NCBI GenBank assembly: GCA_951406725.2
Contig: OX597821.1
Span: forward strand, 25,606,001-25,670,000
Length of the DNA: 64,000 bases
Direction: 5' to 3'
Source: Octopus vulgaris
Lineage: Eukaryota
Of this stretch, positions 2,866-45,693 are shown one piece after another; positions within the stretch are counted from its first letter, which is position 1; the number at the start of each line of letters is the position of its first letter. The translations under genes and the position numbers were made by a program. The notes below the pieces were generated by a model, which saw nothing but the letters and a program-made list of their open reading frames with translations, searched no databases and was not told the origin of the DNA.

Positions 2866-2927
2866 CACCACCATGAATGTAAAAATCCCGGAGGTTCACC
2901 TAATGTAATATTTTTTTCCCATCGAAT
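2866..2927 (-). CDS. SSBP3: SSBP/Ssdp coding exon 3 ([20 protein letters not shown] + TG)
   Basis: The minus strand reads ttctgtttcag|ATT CGA TGG GAA AAA AAT ... TCA TGG TGG TG|gtaagt. The exon is 62 nt and continues the LUFS domain. The expected next exon (VFWDLY...) was not seen in 1-2865, so the gene continues beyond the window start. Confidence 0.97.
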
Positions 2928-3136
2928 CTGAAACAGAAATTGGTAGAATGAGTTACAAGGCACAGATTGTGTGATGTTGTGGCCTGCATGCCTTTACCAC
3001 AGGACAGACAGTCCAACTTTGACAGGGAAGCATGTACAATTGAGGAAAGCAACTACAATGTTTCACTGGTACTTACTAACACCACTTATCAGATTAAAAT
3101 CATAGGAAATAGTAAGGCGTGGGATTTCACCTAACT

Positions 3137-3446
3137 CAGTGGTTCTCAACCATTTTCTATCTATGGACCCCTACGATTACTGTTCTATTCCGCTAGACCC
3201 CATAGCCATTTGATGTTTAAAAACTCTTTTTATAGACACTTCTTTCAAAATTCCTATTTTGTCTTTCATATATTGCATGGGTTGAACGATGTAAAACGTT
3301 TAAGAAATTTAGATGGTTCTGGCAATAGATACATCTAAAGCAAAATTTTTTCATGCACCCTTAATATACTACTGTGAGTCCTTAATTTACTACTTTAGTT
3401 GCATGAACCCTAAAAATCTTACATGGACTTTGATTGAGGACCACTG
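3137..3446. mobile_element. hAT MITE (older)
   Basis: TIRs CAGTGGTTCTCAACC / GATTGAGGACCACTG; imperfect 8-bp TSD acctaact / atctagct. Confidence 0.75.
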
Positions 3447-4819
3447 ATCTAGCTAGCTCTTGTAGTTGTTTTTACTAACTCCTATTCACCAATTTCTATT
3501 TTGGAGTCAATTCCAAGCAGGGATTGATTTACATGTTTCAAACCCCGATTAACCCTTTTGTTACCATTTTTGTTGAAATATGATGCCTTAGCTTCAATCA
3601 ATTTTGAAAATAAGGAAGAATTAGTAAAACAACTTGTCATAAATTAAGCTGGTGATCAGAACAAAAATTAACTTCAAATTTTAATGAAAAGTTTAAATTT
3701 AGATCACAGACAAAAAAAAAGTTAATCATCATTTTAGTGTCCACGTTTCCAAGCTTACATAGATCACACAGAATCCACTGGGACATATTTTCCATGGCCG
3801 AATGCACTTACAGGTCGCTTTCACCAGTTTCCAAGCAAGGTAATATTTCCCCATGGCTGGACATGTTTTCATGGCAGATTGGAAACAAAGGATGAAGGAC
3901 ACCGCTTGTGCCACTGTCACACAAGAGGTGACACTCGTTTACAGCCTTTGAGCCATGCCAACAAGGAAATACAAACACACATATGTATATAGAACAGGTT
4001 TCTCTCAAGATCCATCTACGAAATCCACTTACAACAAGACTTTAGCTGGCCCAAGGCTACAGTAGTATAACACTTGCCAAAAGGTGCCATGCAATAGAAT
4101 CATATAGTCATGCCTGCATTTATGTTATAAAAGAAAAGAATGCACCAATATTTTTGTCACCAATCCATGACAATATGGACCCTACAACTAGACAGAAGAT
4201 ATGTATTATTAACAGTATTTAGGAATGTAACCAGAAAACAAAACATGACTCACAACTGGTGAGTGTGGCTATAGGCTTTAATAGGACTTTCTCCAAATGT
4301 AAAGAATATTAAAAAGACAAATTAAAAGGGCTGTTTCAAAGTCACTATGATGATATTTGATGACTGTTAGTAATGGAGTTGGTGTTCAACTGCAAGTTGC
4401 TCTGACTGAGCAAACTTATGTTCAAAAGCATTCCAATCATAATCATCCTGTCTTCTATTCAGATGTAAGTGTATCTAGGACAATATTATCTAATGTGTCC
4501 CTCCTTAAATATGGCAAGTTGGTAGACATCATTGCCTGGTTTAACACTGGTCATCTAGCCCTTAGCTGCCTTTATTAGAGTCCACTGTGTTGCACTCATT
4601 CAGGGCCAGGCTTCCAGTATGAGGATAAATTCTTTTCCACAGTAACGAAGGGCCCCTAACAAGGGTCATGGGCACTTCTCTTCCTTCTCTGACTAAGCCC
4701 TTAACAAAAAAGAAAAGAAAAACAAAATGAAACATGGCTGCTATTTCCAGCAAGCCGAATGACTGTAGATGTTTTTGTGTTGGCAGTGATGGAGGTGATT
4801 CAGAAACTACCAGCCGGAG

Positions 4820-5870
4820 CATCGTTACCAGGTGATAACTAAGTAATGGCCAGTAGAAACTAGATGATGATCATGTGGTAAAGTACTGACCATAATAAGT
4901 AAAGGACTGAGTGAAGACCCAGATGTGAAGTTAAAGATCAGATTAGATGACCAAGTGAGAAAAGAGTAAGTGGTAAAGACCCGGGGTAGATGACTGGGTG
5001 AGAACCAATTAAAGACAGATGAGACAATGGACGGAGACCAAGTAATGAGAACAGTAGAGGCCATAGGTAGATGAGCAAGTAAGAATCATGTTGTAAAAAT
5101 AGTACAGACCATGTGCAGATAATAAAGGAAGTAGAAACCAAATGAGAACCAATGTTGCAAAGAATGATCTTTCATGTAGCTAACAAGAAAGGAACCATGC
5201 AATAAAGAAAAGGAAGAGACTTTGGGTAGATGACCCAGAAAAAACCATGTGGTAAAACAGGTTGCTGTTTGTTTCTAGTTCAACACTAACCAAACAGTCT
5301 TATGATCAAAGACATTCAAAGAACTAATCCATGTTATATATAAAACTAATCTGTTAATGCCATGTCCTTATATAAGACTGTAGAGTGTGATTTGAAGATT
5401 TGGCTGCTAATTCTAGCAGATTGAGTGACTATATGGTGACTTTTTCACTGGCTCATGGTGAAGAAAGATCTATGGTTAGATGACCAGATCCATGTTGTAA
5501 GAAGGCACAGATTACAACTAGATAACCAGGTGGGAACCATGTGATAGAGATTACGGGCAGATGACCAAAAGACTATGGTAAAACAGGCAAAGACCAGAGA
5601 GATTATGGGCAGTTACCAAAGTGAACCAGGAGGAGACCATGTGGTAAAACAGACATCATAGTTATATGAGCAACTGACGACCATGTTGCACACATAGATA
5701 CCATGAGCAGATGACCAACCAGCTGAGAATCACTCTGTAAACAGAGACTGGATGGGAAAGGTAAGCAGCTGAGGGCTATGTGCTAAATATGGGGACCTGA
5801 GATTGATGAGCAGCCAAGGATCGCATAGTGAAACATGATAGAGAGCAAAGACAGATGACCCCAGCGAGAA
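4820..5870. repeat. Degenerate ~45-50 bp tandem repeat (GTAGATGACC...AACCATGTGGTAAA)
   Basis: About ten or more diverged units of agatgacc / ccatgtggtaaa adjacent to SSBP exon 2. Confidence 0.65.
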
Positions 5871-5912
5871 ACAAATGTAAGGATGTGTGCCACAAATACA
5901 ATTTATACTTAC

Positions 5913-5985
5913 TTCTGATAAAAACGTCTGTGCACTTTTCTGAGCTCCAACATGTAGTAAATATTCATAGACATATAACGCTAAC
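5913..5985 (-). CDS. SSBP3: SSBP/Ssdp coding exon 2 ([25 protein letters not shown]; LisH/LUFS domain)
   Basis: The minus strand reads ttgcaatttcag|G TTA GCG TTA TAT GTC TAT GAA ... TTA TCA GAA|gtaagt. The exon is 73 nt, phase 2 to 0, and the peptide is the conserved LisH motif of SSBP/Ssdp. Confidence 0.97.
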
Positions 5986-6091
5986 CTGAAATTGCAAGAA
6001 AGTGGTTTATATTTATACTGGCAAAATCAAACATGAAAAAAAATTAATCTGCTGGAAAAATAAAGTAGTAGATGTGTGCATGTGTATATAG

Positions 6092-6132
<41 letters not shown>

Positions 6133-7858
6133 CATAAGTAAGCAAAGTTTTGGAGGGAGGGGTGTATATATACACAGAAACAACTAGGCAAGAATATACA
6201 CACATCTATAGATGTATACAAGTGTTTATTTTCTTGACAGAACACATGCAGATATACACACACACACACACATGTATAATACATATACACATACGTATAC
6301 ATGTACATGCATCTACATAAACACACATGCACACATATACATACACACACAAATATTTTATTGAGAACACAAGCATACTATTATTATTGTAGTAGTAGTA
6401 GTAGTCAAGAGCAGTGAATGGTGGTGTTTGCCACATGTTTATAGCTGAAGTATTTCAAATGTTAAATGCTAAGACATGTTTGGACAGTTGTGGTAGGGGC
6501 TAACATCTTATGGGGTGGTTTATGAAAGGGATGTGAGGGTAATGTTACTGCTGGGGAGGAAGGAGAGAAAAACTGGACGGTACTTCTTTGGCAAGGGGAT
6601 AACGTTTGAAGATTAATAACAGACGATGTTTAGTCTCAGGTCAGATCTGATGAAGCAGACCTAGGCGTTCCACTCGTGACTACCCTGTGTATTAAGACAG
6701 TATATCTAAACTACACTTTCCGATGTGTTCTTTCTTTAAAAAAAAAAAGAGAAAAGACTAGCTTGTGATTTGAAGATTTTACTATTATTTCTAGCATTTA
6801 GAATGACCAGGCAGAGGCCATATAGGGCAACAATGTAAAACAAAGAGGTGAATAGGAAGAAATAAAAATGGGTCACAATTAAGAGGAATAATGATTATAA
6901 TACGGCTGGGCACGAATAAAGGAAAAGGATAAGAATTATAGCGAGGGCTAACAAGCAAGGAAAAGAATGTAATACATATGAAAACGAGAGAAGTTAATCA
7001 GGGAAGATGGTTTAACACAAGTGGGATAACAAGATTAGTACAAACTTTAATGCAAAAAAAGCTGAAGGTGCAACTGGGCACACTTTTAACCAGTAAGGTA
7101 GGTGGTGTACAGTAAAGTTTTTAAACATAACAAATAAGGGGTAAAAGAAGACAGAGTAACAAGGAGAATGGAGAGGAAAATTAAAAAGAGATTTAACACA
7201 TGCTGGGTAGGGATAACAACATAATTAAAACGTGGAGGTAGAGAGAGGATAGGAATATGAAGAAAAGGCGGGGTAACAATAATAGGATGTTAAAGAAAGG
7301 GATAACACTAGGGTTGGTTGGCTTTCAACTTATATTTATTGTATCTTAGAAATGGGAAAACAGAGAGAGAGAGAGAGAAAATAGACAGACATGGAAGAAA
7401 AGTGCTAAATAATAGAAGTAGTGCAACAACAATAACGACAAGAGAAATAATAACAAAGACAGCAGCAGCAGCAGCAGTAACAACAAGATGTGGTGGAGGG
7501 GGAAGAGGAGGAGAGAGACTGAGTAAAATTTTGGGAGGGAAATAGAAATTTCAGATATTAGTCAGTGTTTTAGTGTCTGTCTGTGTGTCCTAGTAATGGT
7601 CACTGTATATATATAATGTACGCGTATGTATACACACACACTAAGTGTTTGTGTGTGTATATATATATATATATACATGCACACATACAAACGTGTAGGG
7701 TGGTCATGTATATATATATATATATATATATGCACACATATAAACGTGTAGGGTGGTCAGACTATCTAATTGAGGTCTGTGTGCGTATTTGATGAGGTGG
7801 TGTAGTAAGTATATTTTGACTGTGTATGTGGTGTTAGTGAGGTTGAGTATATATATAC

Positions 7859-7908
<50 letters not shown>

Positions 7909-8362
7909 TGAGGGATGAGACAGCGTGTATGTTGTGGTTTAACTTCCAGGTCAACCCTGAACAAGCAGGCCGATGATCAAAAGCATTCCAGCCATGACAA
8001 TCCCATATTTTGAGAGTTAGCGCATTGTCTAGATCCCTTTTCCTTGTACATCAGCAGATTGTGGTTGAAGGGGTGTTCAGTTACTATTTCTAGCACGTTC
8101 AGTGACCATGCAGATCCTCCTGTTGGAAGAGAGAGAGGATGCGAGGCAGATATGTCGTTAGCCTCAGGTCAGCTCGATCAAGCAAATCTTATTGATCAAA
8201 GGCATTCCTCTCGTAACTAACCCATCTTTTTCGTAAATGCAGGGAACCCAAGTGTCCACATTTTTAAGAAGTTAGGAGAACATGAGCTATTTTGCTATTT
8301 TCTAGCAGGTCGAGTAACACAAAAATCTTCAGTGTGTACATGGTACACTGAAGCTGTGTGTG

Positions 8363-8433
<71 letters not shown>

Positions 8434-8474
8434 TTGATGTATTGAGGTTATGTGAATATGAACTGAAAACTGTG

Positions 8475-8510
<36 letters not shown>

Positions 8511-11231
8511 ATCGTTTGTAAAAAAACAAATCCGAAAGAAGCACAGAAAGATGCAGTACATATTAAAAATGGGGAAGGCCGGTTTTATGGGATTACTTAG
8601 GCTTCCCGTCCATTAAGGGTTTAGCTATATATGCTGTGTGAGTACCAGTTGTAATGAAGCTGTGTATATGAGGAGTAATGAAGGCTTGTATACATGGTAT
8701 ACTGAGGCTGGGCTGTGTGTACGTAAGTGAAATGATGAGGTCGTGTGGTACTGTGATGCTATGTGTAAAAGATGAAGTGAGTCTGTGCTTATTTATATAT
8801 GTGTATATATATATATATATACATGGCATAGTGTGTAACGTGGGAATTTGGTACTTAGTGAGGCCTAAGTGAGTACGTGATACGATGGGATTCAGTCAAA
8901 AGTGGTGGTGTGGTTTTGTTGTTTAAATCTGTGGTTGTATGTTGTGACTCCGTCCCAAGTTAACTGTGACTGAGCAAACCTATATATAATCAAAGGCCAC
9001 TCCAGTCGCGACCATCCTCTTCGTTTAGGGATATCTACGACTACTTTATTCAATGTGTTCTTTTCTTTATTTAAACTATTAGGGAGTCATTTTGATGGGT
9101 ATTTGACTGCTGTTACTAAACAGGTCAAGTTGTACCAGATAGAGTCTCTGGTTGGCTCGTGTTTGCTGTACATATACTGAAGTGATTTGCCTATTGTGTA
9201 TATTTCAGGGAGCAGGAATTCCCGATGGCATTTGGCTGCTATTTCTAACAAGATGAGCTACAGAGTATCGGTTTCCTCCTGACCCAGGCAAATGTGTATA
9301 CATAGGCAGCGTTGTTTAACACTAGGTCAACCATGATCGAGTAAAACCAATGATCAAGAAGTACTCCAGTCGCAACCATATATCCTTTTGTATACCCAAT
9401 GCATGCCTCATTTTAGCATGGCAGAATGTGACCGAGGCGGGATTTGGGTCCTACTTTTTGCAAGTCGACTGACCGCCTAAAGCCTCTTTCGTTTGCTTGT
9501 GTGATGTCAGAATCGTGTTGTTTATAGCCCCAGGTAAGCATGTAATGAGGAGACCAATGATCAGAAAAAAAACATTCCATTCACAACCACTCCATCTTTA
9601 TTTTTTTGTTTCTCCAGACATAAATATACCTTGGACAACATTATTCAATGTCTGTTTTTTACTAATTTTCAACGCAGAGGGGAATAATTTAAGGTTGGTG
9701 TCTCATGGCTAATTCTGGCAAGTCGAGCCACCATATAATCTCCGGCTTACAAGCGAAGCTGTGTTTGTTATATGTATGTAGTGTTGTGAAGCCGGCTGTA
9801 TGTATGTGTTTATACATGTGGTGTTATGAGACCGGTTGTAATGTATGTACATGCAATGTGACTGAGAGTGTGTACATGTGTGCGTATTGAGAAGTTTTAT
9901 TTGTGGTGACCGTAAAGGACCGCTTCTTTTATAATTTCATTGTTGGGTGCCGCCACTAGCAAGAACAGCCAGGGTTTTCCCCCCTCCAATTGCTAAGCAG
10001 CCGTTTGTTACCCCTTTTCTCTGGACATACAAAAACATCCATCAATAAATAAATCCCTTCAAATACTTGACCCTCCAAACTGCAGCACTTTATTTAATCA
10101 ACATGGAAATAATTAACTTGATTACAACCACCATAGCCCTGTTTGAAAAAAAAATACACACCTTTATATACATAGGGGCATTCATTCATAGCGGAATAAG
10201 ATTACCAACCACCAAACCAACGTGTATCATCCTGAGTCTAATGAAGAACACCACAGTATATTACTGGTACTTAACTTCGCTAACATACACACGTAGACGA
10301 TTAAGAGTGAAGTTTCAAACCACAGCATTGAATTCAGAAATAAAACTCGTTTGGGTCTTTTTCACTAAAGCTATAGGCTCGGTGGTGAGGTCTGCTCTCC
10401 ATACAGGAACAAGAGATTTATATGGGATGGACAGATACAACGTTGTAAGTGTCGATGTCCTTCTTTTAGAGTTTATAATACCTATCATATGAAGTGAAAC
10501 TGAACCGACAATCTCGGCTTAATTTCATTTCATTATATTAATGCAGTAAAATTATTTTTGATTAGACCCAAGGAACAGAGGGAATAGAATCAATTCTGGT
10601 TTGTATATTAATACAAACTTTATAGATATGAAATAAGAATAAAAATGGTAGATGGTTAGAAAGAGTAAATAGGGTCAGATAGGGGCCCCCTGGAATCCTG
10701 AAAGAAAAGCTCACGATTCAATGTTGTATGTTAAAGTAACTTAAGACCCGGGCTATAAATTAATGAATGAGGGGGGGAAGAATGGGTAGTAAATAAACAA
10801 ATAAAGAAGTTAAGATCGTCAGGTGGTTCATTTTAGAAAGGTGAAGGAGGTTTAATTAAAAGAAAAACCCTTGGCTACATGTGTGTTTTGTGTATTTACC
10901 CTAAATGCCGAGATCCTACCCTAGCTCCACAAAACCTGCGAAACGAAGAGCTTCGGTCCCGGAGGATACATATAAACAAACGTGCTACATACAGACATGT
11001 CGAATACAACAACAATAACCATCATAACAATAACAACAAACAGCAAAGTGGAACAAGAAATTAAAGACATCGAAACATGGAGCGAAGACATGAGAGAGAG
11101 GAGGGAGGGAGGACGAAAAGAGATCGAGGAATGAGAGCGAGAGAGAGAGAAGAGGAGTGAGAGAGAGAAAGAAGAGGTAATGATGATGATAATAATAATA
11201 GTGGTGGCGGTGTGGTTGTAGTAGTACTTAC

Positions 11232-11287
11232 TTTTCCCTAGCTTGAGCATCAGACGGCACTGTAGAGCCTTTCCCTTTGGCGTACAT
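11232..11287 (-). CDS. SSBP3: SSBP2/3/4 (Ssdp) single-stranded DNA-binding protein, coding exon 1 (MYAKGKGSTVPSDAQARE + AA)
   Basis: The minus strand reads caagcATGTACGCCAAAGGGAAAGGCTCTACAGTGCCGTCTGATGCTCAAGCTAGGGAAAA|gtaagt. This is the recognisable Ssdp/SSBP N-terminus, with a canonical donor in phase 2 that joins exon 2 in frame. The invertebrate gene is co-orthologous to SSBP2/3/4, so the symbol is approximate. Confidence 0.96.
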
Positions 11288-11500
11288 GCTTGTAGCTGAA
11301 GTGTCACGGCACCTGTCAAGCCATCAAGGACGACACTGACCCCGTTGCCTTGCCAACGTCAAGGAGAGCTGTCAAAAGGCAAGTTACGATTGGGTAGTTA
11401 ATTATAGTAACTTTGGAGCACCTTGAAACAGTCGGCTACGATATCATGTGCTGCTAGACTGACAAAGGCTGATTGGCGCTCAGCCAATTATCTGCCACTT
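11288..11500 (-). promoter_or_regulatory. SSBP 5'UTR and proximal promoter
   Basis: Unique, CpG-containing sequence directly upstream of the SSBP ATG. CCAAT boxes lie at 11389-11393, 11472-11476 and 11484-11488 (the last two an inverted pair). TGACAG (TALE/Meis-type) motifs lie at 11313-11318 and 11369-11374. Confidence 0.6.
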
Positions 11501-12731
11501 CATCCCCCAACACATACATACAACTACACTTACACTCTCCTCTTCCACAGCTTTACCCCTCTCTATAAAATATGTATCAACTTCCTTTCTAACTACGTCA
11601 TTCCTCCATCTACTCCTCTTTCTTTCTCTCTCGCTCTCTACATATGGTTTTTTAATAAACACCCACACTCTTTCCTCCCCTTCTATACAACTTACCTCTT
11701 TCTATACACGTACACACTGCTCTCACTCCACCTTCTACTCTATCACTCCTCCCCTTCGCCTGCATACCCTCTCTAAATAAATACAAGTACACACTCCTTT
11801 TTTATGTCATATTTACTCCACCTACTACTCTCTGCCCTTCATAAGCAACGCACTCTCTATTAAATTCTTACACGCTTCTATCGCTTACTCAGTCTCCTTC
11901 GTCTAACCAATTACTCTCTTTCTCTCTATCACTCATACCACCACTCTTCTCCTATACACATAAGCAATACACACAGATGTAGACACTAGAACTACAGCAC
12001 ACACACACATGCCTATACACACAAGTATTAAAATGACACTCACACACACACTATTAACACATGTATTTACGATACACACACATATGTTCTTAGACAGAGA
12101 GCGGGGTGACATACACATACATACTCTTACTTTGCCCCTCTCTCACTGCTCCATACACGCAGCGAAGGGGAGAGAGCACGTAGAATAAAATATTTTCCTT
12201 CGTTAAGTGAATAAAATACAATTACGTATTCCATGTGAAGAAGGGGGGGAGAGAGAAAACAGTATTATCATCATTATTATTATCATTATTAAAAATGTAA
12301 GAAATCATTATTTTCACCGTTAATATTATTAATGTAGAAGTGCCGCATGACGACTTCTGGTCTCTGATCGAGCCTCAACAAACGACATCACCCTTGTCAT
12401 TAAACAATATCGTTTGCCACATCAATGCAATATTTACTGGACTTATTTCAACTTAATTATTTTTCTCCACTGCAGAAAAAAAAAAAAAAAGGCAAAGCCA
12501 AAAAAAAAAATATATACGAAATAGGAATTCAAAAAATATTTGGAAAAGTTTTTTTTTTTTTTTTTTTACTCGGTTGCCAGCATAATTCGAACTTACACCC
12601 TCTTCCTGTGAAATATATATAAAATATGAGTGAAGAACTAATCTTTATTAACCCTCTTTTAGTAACTTTTATATTTTCAATTAAGATGTGCTTGCACAAG
12701 CTTTACGCACAAATATACCTTTAAATGAGTA

Positions 12732-12774
<43 letters not shown>

Positions 12775-13424
12775 TATACATACAGTAATACTTAATATTT
12801 ACACATACAAATATACGTATATGCGTGTATACACTTATATATATATATATATGTATAACGAGTATATAGCTTCAGCATGCGGTTTTATACATATACACAG
12901 TAAGACTATAATATCTTTCTACATGTGTTGTAAATTCAAGTGTTTTGGGATGTATTTTATGTTGTTACTAATTATTAGTATTTACGACAGATTTGGTGCA
13001 ACTTTCTCCATATATACAGAGAGAGATGCTAACTGTTTAATTTCAGCCAGAACTGGTTGGATCAATGAAGAAAATTTAAATAATAAAAGCTTTCAGCAGT
13101 TGACCTATATTTACAGAGACTCCACGGACTGAATAGAGGCGGGGTACCTTGAAACTGCTGGCTCTAGACGATTCCTATAAGAGAGGGAAGGGATGCCAAC
13201 ATGACTTGTAATTCACTACACTTACTATTTACTGGCCACGGGAAATCTGTCTCTCGCTTAATTCAACAGCAAATAAAATTATTTACTAATATATATTGTA
13301 TGTTTAATATATTTTGCATTACAGTAGTCGTTTTTAGCCCGGTGCTGCGACAGTTCTACAACCTAACCCACCTAGAAGGAAAAGGGGTTTCCCTAAGTCC
13401 GGTCCATTGTAGATCCATGAAGTG

Positions 13425-13529
13425 ATGACGGCTGGTTCGATTTCCGAGGAAGAATTTCTGGCTTCAGCTCACAACTTCTTGAAAGTCTCCGCTGACAATG
13501 TCGACGTCTGGCAACTTCACAAAGTACCT
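13425..13529 (+). CDS. ATG10: Ubiquitin-like-conjugating enzyme ATG10, first coding exon (MTAGSISEEEFLASAHNFLKVSADNVDVWQLHKVP)
   Basis: ATG plus 35 open codons ending CCT|gtaagt (phase 0). The pattern (G-S-I-S-x-E-E-F ... F-L-x-x-S ... D-x-W) matches the ATG10 N-terminus. A candidate acceptor (ttttgcattacag) lies at ~13324, and the neighbouring SSBP gene supports the call. The downstream catalytic exons were not found in the window. Confidence 0.82.
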
Positions 13530-13969
13530 GTAAGTGGAAAAAAAAAAACCAACAAAAAATAACGTTATCTTTGTTTACGTTCAACATCCCCACATCCCCC
13601 AATCAAATGTATATATACCTAAAAATTGCGTATACTATAATATATATGTATATATATATGTATGTACATACAATAAATTTAAAATAAATGTATATAATAA
13701 TAATATATGCATATAATCCTAAGTATATATATATATATATCGTTATATATCTATGTAATGTACACACACGTGAAATAAAATATATAGAAATGTAAAATAA
13801 ACTTTATACATATAACTATACAAATGTATAGAAATTGTACGTGTGTATATATATGTATATATATATATATACATATATATACGTAACAAATATGTGTATC
13901 TATATAATATATATATATATTTATAAAAATGTAAAAATTAACGCAATATAAATATAAAAATGTTTATAC

Positions 13970-29659: not shown

Positions 29660-31241
29660 GCCACGTTCGGATGGTGCTTTTTACGTACTACCAGCACAGG
29701 TATCTCAACTACAATTTCCATTTGATTTTTATTTTGATGTTGATGTACTTAACTCAATAGGTCTCCTCAAGTACAGCAGGTCACCCTATGATCAAAGGTA
29801 AGCATAGCAGGCCGTCCTGCAATCCAAGGTATTTGGGATGGGCTGGGGCTGCTATGTGAAGCTGGTGCAGGAAACAGCCATGAACTACGTTATTTGTCGG
29901 GTCTTCGCAGTCACAGAATATCTTCTGAGGTTTCAGTCTTTCGTCATTGCCTCTGTGAGACCCAACGTTCAGAGGTCGTGCTTGACCACCTCATCCCATG
30001 TCTTCCTGGATCTACCCAGATTCCTTCAACTGTTTGGGAGTGGCACTTCTTCACACATCTCTCCTCATCCATTCGTAGTACATGACCATACCAGTGCAAA
30101 CGTCTCTCTTGCATGCCACATCCGATGTTGCTTATGTCCGGCATTACTCTCAGGGTGCTTACACTCTGTCGTGTGTGCACACTAACATTATACATCCAGC
30201 AGATCATGCTAGCTTCATTTCTTTCAAGCCTACGCATGTCCTCAGCAGTCACAGCCCGTGTTTCACTACCATGAAGCATGGCAGTTCACACACATGCATC
30301 GTACAATCTACCTTTTACTCTGAGCGAGAGACCCTTTGTCACCAGTAGGGGTAGAAGCTTTCTAAACTTTGCCCAGGCTATTCATATTCTAGTGGTGACA
30401 CTCTCTGAGCATCCACCTCCACTACTAACTTGGTCACCTAGGTAGCAGAAACTATCAACTACTTCTAGTTTCTCCCCCTGGAGTGTGATGGAATCTGTTT
30501 TCTGAGTATCTGCCGCACATAAAAGCTATCTTCTCAGTTAAATTTCCTTTGATGTTGCTGCACCTTATGCATCCATAGCTTACACTGGGTACATCTTATG
30601 GAGTTTCTACCTACACCTTTTCTACAGATCGAGCAGGGCCACCTACTTGAGGGTGTGTGTGATGAGTTCGCCTTCCTACTGACTATAACTTTGATCTTTG
30701 CTTCATTGACCCTAAGGCCTTTTGATTCTACACTTAGCTTCCATGTCCAAAATTTCTTCTCTAGTTCCAGTAGTGATTTTGCCATGAAGGCCAGATCATC
30801 AGCATAGAGGAGCTCCCAGGGGCAACCCGTCTTGAATTCCTCTGTTATTGCCTGGAGGACTATGATGAATAAAAGGGAACTGAGGGCTGAACCTTGGTGG
30901 ACCCCTACTTCTACACGGAATTCTTCACTATACTCGTTGCCAATCCTAACCTTACTAACGGCCTCTCTGTATAGGGCCTGTACATCCCTTATTAACCATT
31001 TGTCAATCTCCAGTTTCCTCATTGCCCACCAGATAAGGTATCGGGGGACCCTGTCAAAGGCTTTCTCCAAGTCCACGAAAGCTAAGTAGGGGGGTTTATC
31101 TTTCGCTAGATATTTCTCATGCAGTTGTCGAACCAGGAATATGGCATCAGTGGTGCTTCTACCCAGAACAAAACCGAACTGCATCTCATCTAAGCAGACT
31201 CTCTCTCTAATGAGATGGGCTATGACCCTCACCGTGACCAT
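29660..31241 (-). mobile_element. RTE-clade LINE, 5'-truncated (RT core to 3' UTR)
   Basis: ORF 30534-31241 has [34 protein letters not shown] and LLYADD. ORF 29944-30279 has LHGSET and RRLHWYGHV. Both sides are flanked by (TA)n. Confidence 0.95.
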
Positions 31242-31284
31242 ATATATATGTGTATATATATATGTGTGTGTGTGTGTATATATG

Positions 31285-31349
<65 letters not shown>

Positions 31350-31356
31350 GTATATA

Positions 31357-31419
<63 letters not shown>

Positions 31420-31420
<1 letters not shown>

Positions 31421-32780
31421 TTTAAGAACGCTAAGTAATACGTTTTTAGTTTTTAAATATATTCGAAAAGATAAGTATACAGTTTATTTAAGAATTAATG
31501 GTGTAATTTATATGATTATTGATAGAATAAATATTGATTTCTAATTTTTTTATTTGTTAATTATAATTGCAATATGTACATGTATTTAATTATTATTATT
31601 TCTATAATTATTATATGTGAACTATGATCTAAAAGTATTGAGTGTGGTTGCTTTGTGAAATAGTTTGTAATGTAAAATATAATAGTATAGGTAGTGAAAA
31701 GTTTTTCTTTTTTGTACTATTGGATTTAATTATAATAATAAGTACTTTCGTTATTCCCTTAATAAGTGAAATATTAGATCTAGACATATAAACGCTAAGT
31801 TATACATTTTTTAATTTAAAATATTTTTTAGTTCATAAATATCTTTGAAAAAATAAGTATACATTTTATTTAAGAAATAATGTTGAAATTTATATGATAA
31901 TTGATTTAAAAATATGTATTTCTAATTTTTTATTTGTTAATTATAATGTAAGATATCTACTTTTATTTAATTATTCATATTATAATATATTGTTGAAATA
32001 TATACAAAATACTATTACAGGGTTGTGGCTGCCAAGTTGTTGATATAAGATATATTATAAGTTTTGTATAGAGTTTAGTACATAGTTTGTATCAGATCAA
32101 ATAAGATGTTTATTTAATTAATAAATTAATATATAATTTATTTAATTAATAAACATAGATTAAATTATAGTAATTTAGCTTAACTTAAGTATATGATTTA
32201 TTTTAAGTATTTTTATTTTAATTAATTGGACTGTTATATTTTTCCAGTAAAGATATACTATGGTTTGTTTAAATAATTCTCAAAGCTAAAATATATCTTC
32301 ACAGATAAAATATATATTTCTATCTATTAACTCTATTTTTTTTACCTTAGGTTTTTAATGTGATAAATGTATTATAAATACCTCGTCCTACATTTTAAGT
32401 TTCAAATTTAGTTAACAGAGTTTCTTCTATAAGAAGAATCATGTTTTTATTTCTTTAAGAAATATTGTTTAATTCTGTTTATGTATTAAAAATATGTATT
32501 TATTTAACTATAATTGTTGTTATTGTTGACCTGAGGAGTGACTATACTTTCTAATTGAAGTCTTTTTGGTTTGATTAAATTTAAATTTAATTGTAATTTG
32601 AATTGAACTTATAGCCACGAAATATACATAGTCTTTTTCCTTATTATATACTGTTTATTTATTATGTACTTTTTGTGATCTAGATAAATGTTTTATCATA
32701 TATTTTTTCTATATGATATGTTTTATGTCTGTCATTGTTTGAATTACATAATAGTGGTTTTTCTCTAATTTATATATATC
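31420..32780 (+). mobile_element. AT-rich element with an internal ~360 bp-period duplication and a 3' hammerhead-like motif
   Basis: 31427-31600 resembles 31790-31980. The motif reads GAC-CTGAGGA (32531)-GTGACTATA...TATAGCCAC-GAAA (32619)-TATACATA-GTC. Confidence 0.6.
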
Positions 32781-38962: not shown

Positions 38963-40762
38963 GTGTGTGGTGTGTGTATGATGCATACATGAGTGTTTGT
39001 CGTTATGTTTATGTTTATACCGATCTAAAACCGGTGTCGTTTATTTGTTTCTTTTCCTGCGGTAGCAGTTCGACAAATAAAAGTCGATAAAATAAGCATC
39101 AGACAGTAATAAATACACATGTCGAAATGATTTGCAAAACCATTGAGGGAGGTATTCCAACATGTAGCAAAACGAAAAAAATATAAATTCACACGTTTTC
39201 AATGTGGCATGTGTGTGTCAACACTTCAGGGTGGATTTCATTTATTGCCAATATTAAGTAAATTTATAAAACATAGTATATCTAAGCTTCTATTCGAAGT
39301 GACATTAGGGTCGAGGAAATACAACGTAAAGAAAATAAATTGAGAGAAGAAAAAGTAAACAAATTTCGGTGCGAATAAATCATCACGGGGTACATAAAAC
39401 ATATTTACACCGGGTGAAGAAGACCTGTAGCGGATTGTTAAATAGTGTTTACTAAAGTCCATTTGACATTTCTGTGTGTACGTGTGTGTGCGTGTGCGAG
39501 TGTGTGTGTGTGTGTTTGTGTGTGTGATCAGCTGCTGGTATGTAAGTATGCTTATAAACAGATCCACTGGCCCGGATTAAAAATTAAGGGCACAAGACGG
39601 AGTGAGGGAACCAGTTTTATTTTTCTTTCTTTTGCAGTTTCGGATTTCCTATGTTGTGACTGAACCAGACCTCTACAAAAATAATAATAATAACAGAAAA
39701 AAAAACGAAACGTTGTGCAATTTGTATTTTCCCCTGTTATCCTGGTTGGAATAAATAATTTAAAAAAAAAAAAGACAACCCATTTAAAGGTTGTCATGTG
39801 CTGTGTTTCAAAGAAAAACGAATTTTAGATCCATTATTTCAAAGTCACCATTTATTTCTGAATGTCTTGCGAGTCAGGGAAGGGTTGAGGGTCACCTTCG
39901 CTGGGTTTCGCTTAGGGGCATTTGGCTCTGCTTGTAACATACAGTCGTTTTAATAAGTCATCATACTGATCAATAGATTTATACTCGTTTATTTATTTTT
40001 ATTTTTCTAATAATATAAAAGTAAATAGTCAGAATAAGAGAAGTGTGTGTTTCCGCCTTTGTGTAAGGATCTGTGTGTTTAATTGTCGAAGCGGAAGGTA
40101 GTATTGCGATTCGATTTCAAATCCTAGTTTGATCCTCTTACCCTCCTGTCAAAATGTTGGGTTGTATATAATGAATATGTATATGTGTGTGTGTGTGTGT
40201 GTAATATAACAGGAAATTACTCACAGATTCTGGTTAGTAAAATAAGAGCCAACGACCGAATGTCTGATAGAATGTAATCTCAGCCGGTTGAAATGATGTT
40301 GTTTGTATGAGAACAGACACAGGGACAATGTCAGAGAAAGGGGGGAGACGCAGAGATAGTGTATGAGAGAAAGAGAGAGAGGGGGAGGGAGGGAAGAAAC
40401 ACAGGGGCAGTGTGAAAGAGAGAAACAAAGACAACGTGAGAGAAATGGGGGGCGGGGGTGACACAGGAACAGTGTGAGGAAGAAAGAAACACATCGACAG
40501 AATGTGATAGAATGGTTGTCTGAAAACATACCTCTACTTTTAGACTCTACGTTTTTACGTCTTTTGCTTGCTTACCTTGTCTAACATGTTTCTTTTCATA
40601 TTCTCTATCTAGCTATCTATACGTCCATGTATCACCTCGCGTCAACACTTTCTTTATTTCAGTTTTCCATATAATCTTCTTGTAGTAAATTAACTAGATT
40701 TTCTATTTCATTTTTACATGCGTACAGAAAGACAGACACACAGATAGGTAGAATGATAGATT

Positions 40763-42739: not shown

Positions 42740-44225
<1,486 letters not shown>

Positions 44226-45632
44226 GTGTGGCAGGTGACTTCAATGGACATGTTGGATGGCATGTCGGGGGCTTCCATAGCATACATGGAGGCTACTGTT
44301 TTGGTTCTCGCAATGAGGAGGGAACCAGGCTGCTGGAGTTCTGCGATGCAAATGACCTTATGGTTTGCAATACCAACTTCAGGAAACCAACCTCTCACCG
44401 TTCTGGCAGACACACTAGCCAGATTGACTACATCCTTGCCAGAAAGAGGGAAAGAGGGCTGCTTATAAATGCCAAAGCCTTCCCGGGCGAAGAATGAAGT
44501 CCTCAACATAGATTAGTAGTTAGTGACTTCAGGATCAGGGCTAAATGGCTGCCCAGAAGAAGACCAGCTTGGAGGAGAAGGGTCTGGAAGCTTAAAGATC
44601 CTGCAAATGGACAGAGATTTAGAGACGTACTACTCAAAGTCTTCGATGAAATAGAAGGGGATATAGCTTCACATAATGTGGAAGAAAACTGGAGATTTCT
44701 ATGGGACAATCTGCTGACAGCTACTGACCAGATCTGTGGATGGAGCAAAGTCCCATCTCGACCCAAGGTAACGTGGTGGTGGAACAATGTGGTTGACAGG
44801 GCTATTAGACAAAAGAAACAGGCTTGGAGGGACTGGAAGAATGGAGGTAGCAGGGAATTGTATCAGACTGCCAGAAGGGAAGCTAGGAGACAGGTTTATT
44901 TAGCCAGAGGGGAAGCAGATAAGAAAAAATTTGCCAATGTTCTGTGCCGTGAGGACGAAAGACTTGAGGTATTTCGTGTAGCAAGACAGTGTGTGAGAGA
45001 GAATCGTGATGTGGTAGGAGAGAAATGTGTTCACATGGATGATGGTTCACTTGCGCTAAATGAGGATGCAAAGAGAGAGCTTTGGAGATGCCACTATGAA
45101 AGGTTGCTGAATAAAGAAAATGAATGGGATAAAGAGAGTCTGCTGAATGTCGACCCAACAGAGGGACCAGCTGTCCAAGTTGACAGTTCTTTGGTAGTTA
45201 AGGCAATTAGAAGCATGAAGATAGGGAAAGCCTCAGGCCCATCAGGAATTACTGCAGAGATGCTCAAAATATCTGGCAGTATCGGCTATGGCCTAGTCAC
45301 CCGTATAGTTAACCAGGTGATACACGAAGGAGTCATACCCAATGACTGGTGTAGCAGCATAATAGTCAACTGCTACAAAGGTAAAGGTGACGCCCTTGAT
45401 ACAAATAATTACTGAGGTATCAAGCTGTTGGATCAGGTGATGAAGGTTACGGAGAGGGTCATAGTCCAACTGATTAGGGAGAGAGTCAACTTGGACGAGA
45501 TGCAGTTTGGTTTCGTGCCAGGGAAAAGCACCACTGATGCCATATTTCTGGTGAGACAGCTGCAGGAGAAATACCTAGCCAAAGTTAAACCTCTGTACCT
45601 GGCTTTCGTTGACATGGAGAAAGCCTTTGACA
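44226..45632 (+). mobile_element. RTE-clade LINE fragment (endonuclease C-terminus to RT N-terminus)
   Basis: [55 protein letters not shown] and AFVDMEKAFD motifs, with few stops. Confidence 0.95.
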
Positions 45633-45693
45633 TGATTGATTAATTAAAAGCATTGTGAATAGATAAGCATAATCTGAGTGATAAAGGGGTTAA

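Follow-up and report, generated by a model that had tools for sequence, protein, structure and literature searches.

Overlapping 5' ends of SSBP and ATG10 in Octopus vulgaris may help to hold an ancient head-to-head gene pair together

In a 64,000-nt stretch of the Octopus vulgaris genome (hereafter the window; GenBank assembly GCA_951406725.2, contig OX597821.1, positions 25,606,001 to 25,670,000, written here as G000:C8:25606001-25670000, C8 being the octopus contig that carries the window), the neighbouring genes SSBP and ATG10 were found to form a head-to-head cis-antisense pair whose transcription units overlap by at least 27 kb. The long leader of SSBP (minus strand) crosses the first coding exon of ATG10 (plus strand) in antisense and extends at least to 40326. 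We give a probability of roughly 0.6 to the explanation that these interlocked 5' ends, with ATG10 hosting the leader and a putative distal SSBP promoter, constrain breakage of the pair. An earlier note on this DNA had reported that the SSBP ATG at 11287 and the ATG10 ATG at 13425 diverge, 2137 nt apart; this observation held and both genes are real, and the overlap of the transcription units was missed there. The features that make up the overlap are as follows.

11287-11232, minus strand: SSBP coding exon 1 with the ATG, 56 nt, GT-AG ends, in frame
11232-11368, minus strand: the SSBP ATG exon within the long leader, of which 11287-11232 is coding
11369-13371, minus strand: leader intron, GT-AG, 2003 nt; the joint 11368/13372 occurs in runs X5, X7 and X9, not X1
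13372-13527, minus strand: middle leader exon, non-coding, 156 nt, antisense over ATG10 coding exon 1
13528-40224, minus strand: leader intron, GT-AG, 26,697 nt; loose ends of X5 and X9 contigs map to 40225
40225-40326, minus strand: distal leader exon, at least 102 nt, inside ATG10 intron 1, marking a putative promoter
13425-13529, plus strand: ATG10 coding exon 1, 105 nt, 35 aa, phase-0 GT donor
13530-64000, plus strand: the first 50 kb of ATG10 intron 1; exon 2 lies at G000:C8:25888200

The evidence comes from contigs of four runs (X1, X5, X7 and X9, from four studies), presumed to be RNA, which were aligned on 11200-13560. The contigs are unstranded and the direction of transcription was taken from the splice sites; they neither fix transcript starts nor rank expression by depth, and bins between 12780 and 13332 that were left uncovered by run contigs were not used as evidence. 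The joint 11368/13372 was seen in three of the four runs (three studies), and the whole stretch that appeared intergenic is thus a 2003-nt intron of the long SSBP leader. The second junction, from 13527 to 40225, was present in two runs (X5 and X9), and the 30-nt end of the distal leader exon has a single exact match in the octopus genome, at 40225. In X5, a single contig of 732 nt runs through the distal exon (102 nt), the middle exon (156 nt) and the ATG exon into exon 2 of SSBP. Of the 105 coding bases in ATG10 exon 1, 103 are covered in antisense by the middle exon, so that 13425-13527 is exonic on both strands, as judged from splice-site orientation. On the ATG10 side, contigs of X7 and X9 join the 13530 boundary to ATG10 exon 2 across a 268,670-nt intron, which bears out the assignment of the 13425 exon to ATG10 made in the earlier note.

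The acceptor of the middle leader exon (13529-13528) mirrors the donor region of ATG10, being its reverse complement. This mirror acceptor has 21 pyrimidines in 25 positions and ranks among the highest 0.65% of 1849 YAG sites on the minus strand. The corresponding purine run after the ATG10 donor (21/25, against 5-15 at 12 other donors checked) forms the antisense pyrimidine tract, and the mirror splice site looks to be under selection.

The long leader carries three short upstream open reading frames (uORFs; 18, 4 and 2 codons) and no long in-frame extension. A shorter form was found in X1, in which one contig ends at 11378 with a 23-nt tail, presumably a template-switch adapter, and another reaches 11470; a proximal SSBP start near 11378 is likely on the basis of the first contig. 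For the distal leader exon, a DNA search that skips common words found no repeat copies, the GA-rich flank alone being repetitive, and an origin of this exon from a repeat was not supported. Judging from this exon, ATG10 is likely to host a distal SSBP promoter in its intron 1.

Concerning the way in which such an arrangement could act, the two genes would be an old head-to-head pair in which the SSBP leader starts inside ATG10 intron 1 and crosses ATG10 exon 1 in antisense, and the distal exon would mark a second SSBP promoter that may be cell-type- or stage-specific. If the DNA were broken between the two start codons, or within the first 27 kb of ATG10 intron 1, SSBP would lose this distal promoter and ATG10 would be disrupted as well; as both genes would be harmed, such rearrangements would be selected against. 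ATG10 would then be a bystander host of the kind known from genomic regulatory blocks, but its cargo would be a promoter with leader exons and not, or not only, enhancers. In lineages in which this promoter has disappeared or been substituted, the pair would become free to break, as in a prawn. The interlock is likely to help explain the persistence of the pair.

The age of the linkage was judged across species by proxy, namely an identical scaffold length for both proteins, plus the order of accessions or locus tags; these proxies carry no orientation, and accession order is not proof of gene order. The species sample is mollusc-heavy, as the searches need words shared with the query and the best 120 matches are listed. 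Of the 24 comparable species, 23 (molluscs, a brachiopod, a tick and sea urchins) keep the linkage: both genes are on a scaffold of identical length in 22, and Octopus bimaculoides has consecutive accessions. Mytilus edulis, Haliotis rubra and H. cracherodii were left out of this count, their contigs not being comparable. The shared scaffold is shorter than 5 Mb in eight species, namely Diadema (0.32 Mb), Lingula (0.47), Lymnaea (0.93), Mizuhopecten (0.95), Mytilus coruscus (1.09), Candidula (1.67), Ylistrum (2.39) and Saccostrea echinata (4.29). Identifiers of both genes were available for 14 species; their gap is 12 or less in nine (O. bimaculoides, Pecten, Mizuhopecten, Sinanodonta, Lymnaea, Candidula, Lingula, Ornithodoros and Diadema) and 111-1431 in Lytechinus pictus, L. 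variegatus, Haliotis asinina and Liolophura, and in O. sinensis they come from different batches. Among the matches listed, Rhopilema gave the sole cnidarian SSBP record, with no ATG10 record, and amphioxus, annelids, nemerteans and insects each had one of the two genes only. In human, we take SSBP2 and ATG10 to be divergent at 5q14.1, about 220 kb apart. By these proxies an ancient microsynteny across four phyla is supported, as the earlier note had proposed, and the head-to-head orientation was seen directly in two mite-like genomic contigs.

These two contigs belong to 80 metagenome loci kept out of 222 SSBP matches; 16 of the 80, amounting to 10 distinct sequences, have at least 3 kb upstream of the SSBP ATG. 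In L047 and L076 ATG10 stands head-to-head with SSBP, its catalytic exons lie farther on, the distance between the ATGs is -2 and 615 nt, respectively, and ATG10 intron 1 spans only 2.5-3.3 kb. The best SSBP matches of L076 include a mite; L047 appears mite-like from the layout that it has in common with L076, its short SSBP piece not being diagnostic. Two further observations concern the same loci. At L047:7338-7341 a single CATG holds the start codon of SSBP as well as the closest in-frame ATG of ATG10, so either 5' untranslated region would fall in the first coding exon of the partner. In addition, ATG10 intron 1 harbours a PTPA gene that lacks introns and is read in the same direction as ATG10 (L047:4766-5701, L076:2923-3966 (minus)), just past the expected start of the long SSBP leader; this gene may be a retrocopy that makes use of the other side of the distal SSBP promoter.

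An ATG10 exon-1 profile scan of 48 loci (L017-L064) gave antisense matches upstream of SSBP in six, namely the mRNA contigs L021, L024, L026 and L028, and L046/L047. The four mRNA contigs, whose best matches are chelicerate, comprise three distinct sequences, L026 being 99.7% identical to L028 and differing from it by an alternative exon. In each, an antisense ATG10-exon-1-like frame with a Met start lies 579-1060 nt upstream of the SSBP ATG and ends, as in octopus, in a phase-0 GT donor, with 196-873 nt beyond the donor. The tested exons beat their shuffles against at least one of the tick, octopus and millipede exons 1 (0-2 of 2000 shuffles, compared with 42 of 2000 for the best spurious control). 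The simplest reading of these contigs is an SSBP leader that starts inside ATG10 intron 1. Between these transcripts and L047/L076, leader homology is limited to simple repeats. In abalone, the RefSeq ATG10 proteins of Haliotis rufescens and H. cracherodii begin with an antisense translation of the SSBP 5' element (17 of 17 residues identical in P0021, 17 of 18 in P0025), and these gene models suggest ATG10-sense leaders that cross SSBP exon 1, a reciprocal overlap. The N-termini of the two models are probably not true protein starts. A layout similar to that of octopus is thus hinted at in mites and abalone.

A pair with a short gap offers a small target for breakpoints and could be kept neutrally, no selection being needed. 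The gap is small in the invertebrates, and the pair has been lost in the prawn and apparently in several fast-evolving lineages, which fits such retention. Other neighbours do change, however: RPS23, presumably a neighbour of the pair in human, has no family match on C8, and PTPA is not in the octopus ATG10 intron but on C1/C14. The mirror splice site, moreover, looks selected, and chance survival of a pair in four lineages has been put at less than 0.0002 per pair (Irimia et al. 2012, PMC3514665, in the part available). We therefore consider neutral retention very improbable.

Several points weigh against the interlock as the cause of the linkage. The 5' end of the distal exon is unmapped, so that exons farther upstream are possible; the contigs are unstranded, the runs are presumed RNA without a DNA control, phasing along the whole transcript is unproven, and conservation of the distal leader exon is known for Octopus alone. 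In Macrobrachium rosenbergii, the prawn mentioned above, SSBP and ATG10 are on different chromosomes (78.4 and 92.1 Mb), and ATG10 is absent within 5-10 kb upstream of SSBP in 8 of the 10 distinct genomic metagenome loci. With the presumed human spacing of about 220 kb, the overlap cannot be a present constraint in human. Concerning the mite-like material, the exons of L024, L028 and L076 are at chance against octopus exon 1, although they stand above shuffles against that of tick or millipede, and the E values of the mite exon-1 profile (2e-4 to 0.04) overlap those of spurious matches within SSBP coding sequence (0.009-0.014). The mRNA contigs could also be SSBP mRNA merged with unspliced ATG10 pre-mRNA. 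Finally, the overlap could be a consequence of long adjacency and not its cause.

Immediately upstream of the SSBP ATG the leader runs through a published conserved element, in which two features were located.

11292-11399, minus strand: "Ssbp2 promoter" element (Frith and Ni 2023); the octopus row of their Supplementary Figure S32 matches the window
11316-11324, minus strand: putative two-codon uORF (Met-Ala-stop), 37 nt before the SSBP ATG, within the conserved core

Over the 110 nt that precede the ATG, the window agrees with the octopus row of this element. Frith and Ni (2023, PMC10735318, in the part available) report conservation across bilaterians for no more than 25 regulatory segments, of which this is one. 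The element contains a CCAAT box, an RFX-like palindrome and a TGACA/E-box core. The 3' splice acceptor of the long leader (11370-11369) and the likely proximal 5' end (~11378) are both inside it; the word TTTGACAG, which is the octopus acceptor, recurs in many protostome rows of Figure S32 (the columns are scrambled in the PDF), and ATG-NNN-TGA occurs in 24 of its 29 rows, counted by eye. The spacing of 37 nt between the Met-X-stop and the main ATG is common to the window and the metagenome contigs L018 and L022, in whose 5' ends the conserved core is present and hence transcribed, and L021 has a degenerate copy of the core that retains a Met-Val-stop, with TAA. Outside the element the motif is not enriched (5 of 38 leaders, against a background of 5.4%). 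The same letters are labelled by the authors as a MEIS/PKNOX site, a reading that also explains them (PMC10735318, available part).

Based on these features, we put forward tentatively, as an idea that is possible although the odds lean against it, that the interlock is ancestral to protostomes, perhaps to bilaterians, with a distal SSBP promoter in ATG10 intron 1 from that time on, and that the element is partly an RNA-level module made up of the acceptor of the long leader and a two-codon uORF, the latter tuning SSBP translation. A reading in terms of splicing and translation would thereby be added to this published segment. Function at the RNA level was raised as a general possibility by Frith and Ni (2023), and the splice acceptor, the upstream leader and the Met-X-stop uORF are not noted in the part of that article available to us (PMC10735318); neither its text nor its supplement mentions ATG10.

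As one possibility, the earlier note had named a shared bidirectional promoter; such a promoter, or co-regulation from between the two start codons, would maintain the pair. The orientation is 5'-5' wherever it was seen directly, the mite-like ATG gaps are 0.6-1.1 kb or less, and CCAAT boxes on both strands and the palindromic RFX-like site are found at 11357-11488, all of which would suit such a promoter. The bidirectional signature, however, is a distance of less than 1 kb between start sites (cited in the available part of Irimia et al. 2012, PMC3514665), whereas in octopus about 2 kb separate the proximal SSBP 5' end (~11378, one contig) from the first ATG10 exon (13425; the transcript start of ATG10 is unmapped), and a further leader exon lies 27 kb inside ATG10. 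On the plus strand, no run contig connects the conserved element with ATG10, and in L047 and L076 no copy of it could be detected upstream of SSBP, though linkage is kept in both. In mouse, the two genes, which are within one quantitative trait locus interval, differ in level and main tissue (PMC10317118, available part). As a main cause, a shared promoter is therefore unlikely.

The other suggestion of the earlier note, a genomic regulatory block, fared better. Here, enhancers in the ATG10 introns would drive the proximal SSBP promoter, and the long leader would be a lineage-specific by-product, for example from an enhancer turned promoter, such a block being more likely for vertebrates. This reading fits the wide human spacing that we presume. 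The pair also combines a developmental regulator with an unrelated bystander, since SSBP is a partner of LIM-homeodomain proteins with a promoter conserved in bilaterians (Frith and Ni 2023, PMC10735318) and ATG10 is an autophagy E2, and three ATG10 introns exceed 10 kb, as described for bystanders by Irimia et al. (2012, PMC3514665), both in the parts available. These introns measure 269, 45 and 69 kb in octopus, against 2.5-3.3 kb for intron 1 in L047/L076, where the intron also holds another gene and the pair persists nonetheless. Moreover, large introns are general at this locus, the SSBP coding region itself spanning 163 kb, so that ATG10 intron size alone says little. What stood of the suggestion is that SSBP uses sequence in the large ATG10 intron; what is seen there is a leader exon with a putative promoter, and we regard the block as a rather doubtful explanation of the octopus locus, if less so than a shared promoter.

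Returning to the interlocked 5' ends, the nearest known systems are the conserved ancestral microsyntenic pairs (CAMPs), of which a set of 595 has been published (Irimia et al. 2012, PMC3514665, the source for the comparisons in this paragraph, in the part available). Like CAMPs, SSBP and ATG10 are unrelated neighbours linked in at least four lineages; CAMPs are mostly 5'-5' and often unite a developmental regulator and a housekeeping bystander. They differ in that CAMPs have been explained by co-regulation or by enhancers in bystander introns, whereas in SSBP-ATG10 leader exons and a probable promoter are within the partner. The Isl-Scaper block is similar in that a long-intron bystander carries cis-sequence needed by a developmental gene; unlike there, the hosted sequence seen here is a transcribed leader, one exon of which reuses the coding exon of the bystander in antisense. 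With bidirectional pairs of the HSPD1-HSPE1 type, SSBP-ATG10 shares the conserved head-to-head orientation; those pairs have less than 1 kb between starts and strong co-expression, in contrast to proximal ends about 2 kb apart and units overlapping by at least 27 kb. The SSBP-ATG10 pair may already be in the catalogue of Irimia et al., and in the available main text the terms "antisense", "alternative promoter", SSBP and ATG10 each occur 0 times.

A literature search at the level of listings returned no account of the conservation or overlap of the pair, although subscription papers and unread supplements may hold one. The pair was not found in the supplements of Schmidbaur 2022 (7 files), Davila Lopez 2010 (6), Gaiti 2017 (12 of 16 files) and Marletaz 2018 (4), weak negatives as gene ids may be used there. 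Ancient 5'-5' pairs (~600) and the promoter element were thus already known, and the overlap anatomy is the new part. Hundreds of ancient pairs have been catalogued, and the physical reason for their linkage is unknown for most; SSBP-ATG10 offers a concrete and testable one. If the proposed explanation is true, co-regulation and enhancer blocks would be joined by interlocking of promoters as a third reason for ancient microsynteny, one that has been under-recognised, and other cases could be found genome-wide as old 5'-5' pairs with leaders that cross the first exon of the partner.

Concerning the genes themselves, ATG10 has six plus-strand exons that give an intact 204-aa open reading frame, identical to O. 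bimaculoides ATG10 at 198 of 204 positions, and the latter protein opens with the same peptide as the 13425 exon. The introns measure 268,670, 44,986, 68,961, 975 and 7,027 nt. With an exon-1 profile of 78 sequences, from which the four closest cephalopod-like ones had been removed, the 13425 exon ranked first among 12,516 fragments (E 1e-6). The Octopus vulgaris ATG10 model CAI9726587 (P0563) lacks the exon-1 peptide and opens with 13 other residues, probably because gene prediction missed exon 1 across the very long first intron. Matches to PF03987 on C19, which from their motifs we take to be ATG3, were set aside as a paralogue. The remaining SSBP exons in the window are the following.

5985-5913, minus strand: SSBP coding exon 2 (LisH), 73 nt, GT-AG, in frame, spliced into from 11230 in contigs of all four runs
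2927-2866, minus strand: SSBP coding exon 3 (IRWEK...HSWW block), 62 nt, GT-AG, in frame

Exon 2 is identical to SSBP2 in PDB 6iwv at 24 of 24 positions (E 1e-10). The SSBP protein of O. bimaculoides/sinensis gave 14 matches, all on the minus strand of C8, of which 13 are collinear and span 163 kb. A further exon, found by the SSDP profile at G000:C8:25497304-25497384, lies about 105 kb beyond exon 4 and is missing from the query isoform X5/X6. The two genes belong to unrelated families, LisH/SSDP for SSBP and Autophagy_act_C for ATG10, and are non-paralogous protein-coding neighbours.

Within ATG10 intron 1, endonuclease/reverse transcriptase fragments were noted at 30537-31421 (minus) and 44200-45640 (plus), which we take from their motifs to be of the long interspersed nuclear element (LINE) type. 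The ATG10 model of Solemya velum (P0042) is fused to a BAF domain, which suggests that BAF is the downstream neighbour of ATG10 in that species; in octopus BAF is on C11, with no match on C8. Matches to the S12/S23 and PTPA families at G000:C16:28355646, C5:8067828-8068150 and C14:37890939 either form one long stretch or contain stops, and are possibly retrocopies or the mitochondrial S12 gene. Four metagenome loci (L065, L066, L067 and L071) carry divergent SSBP copies that are intronless in the matched part and have different neighbours (PCMT, presenilin, CDP-alcohol transferase and UPF1). Three of these copies are on contigs that share one name prefix, and the four loci possibly represent a lineage with several SSBP paralogues.

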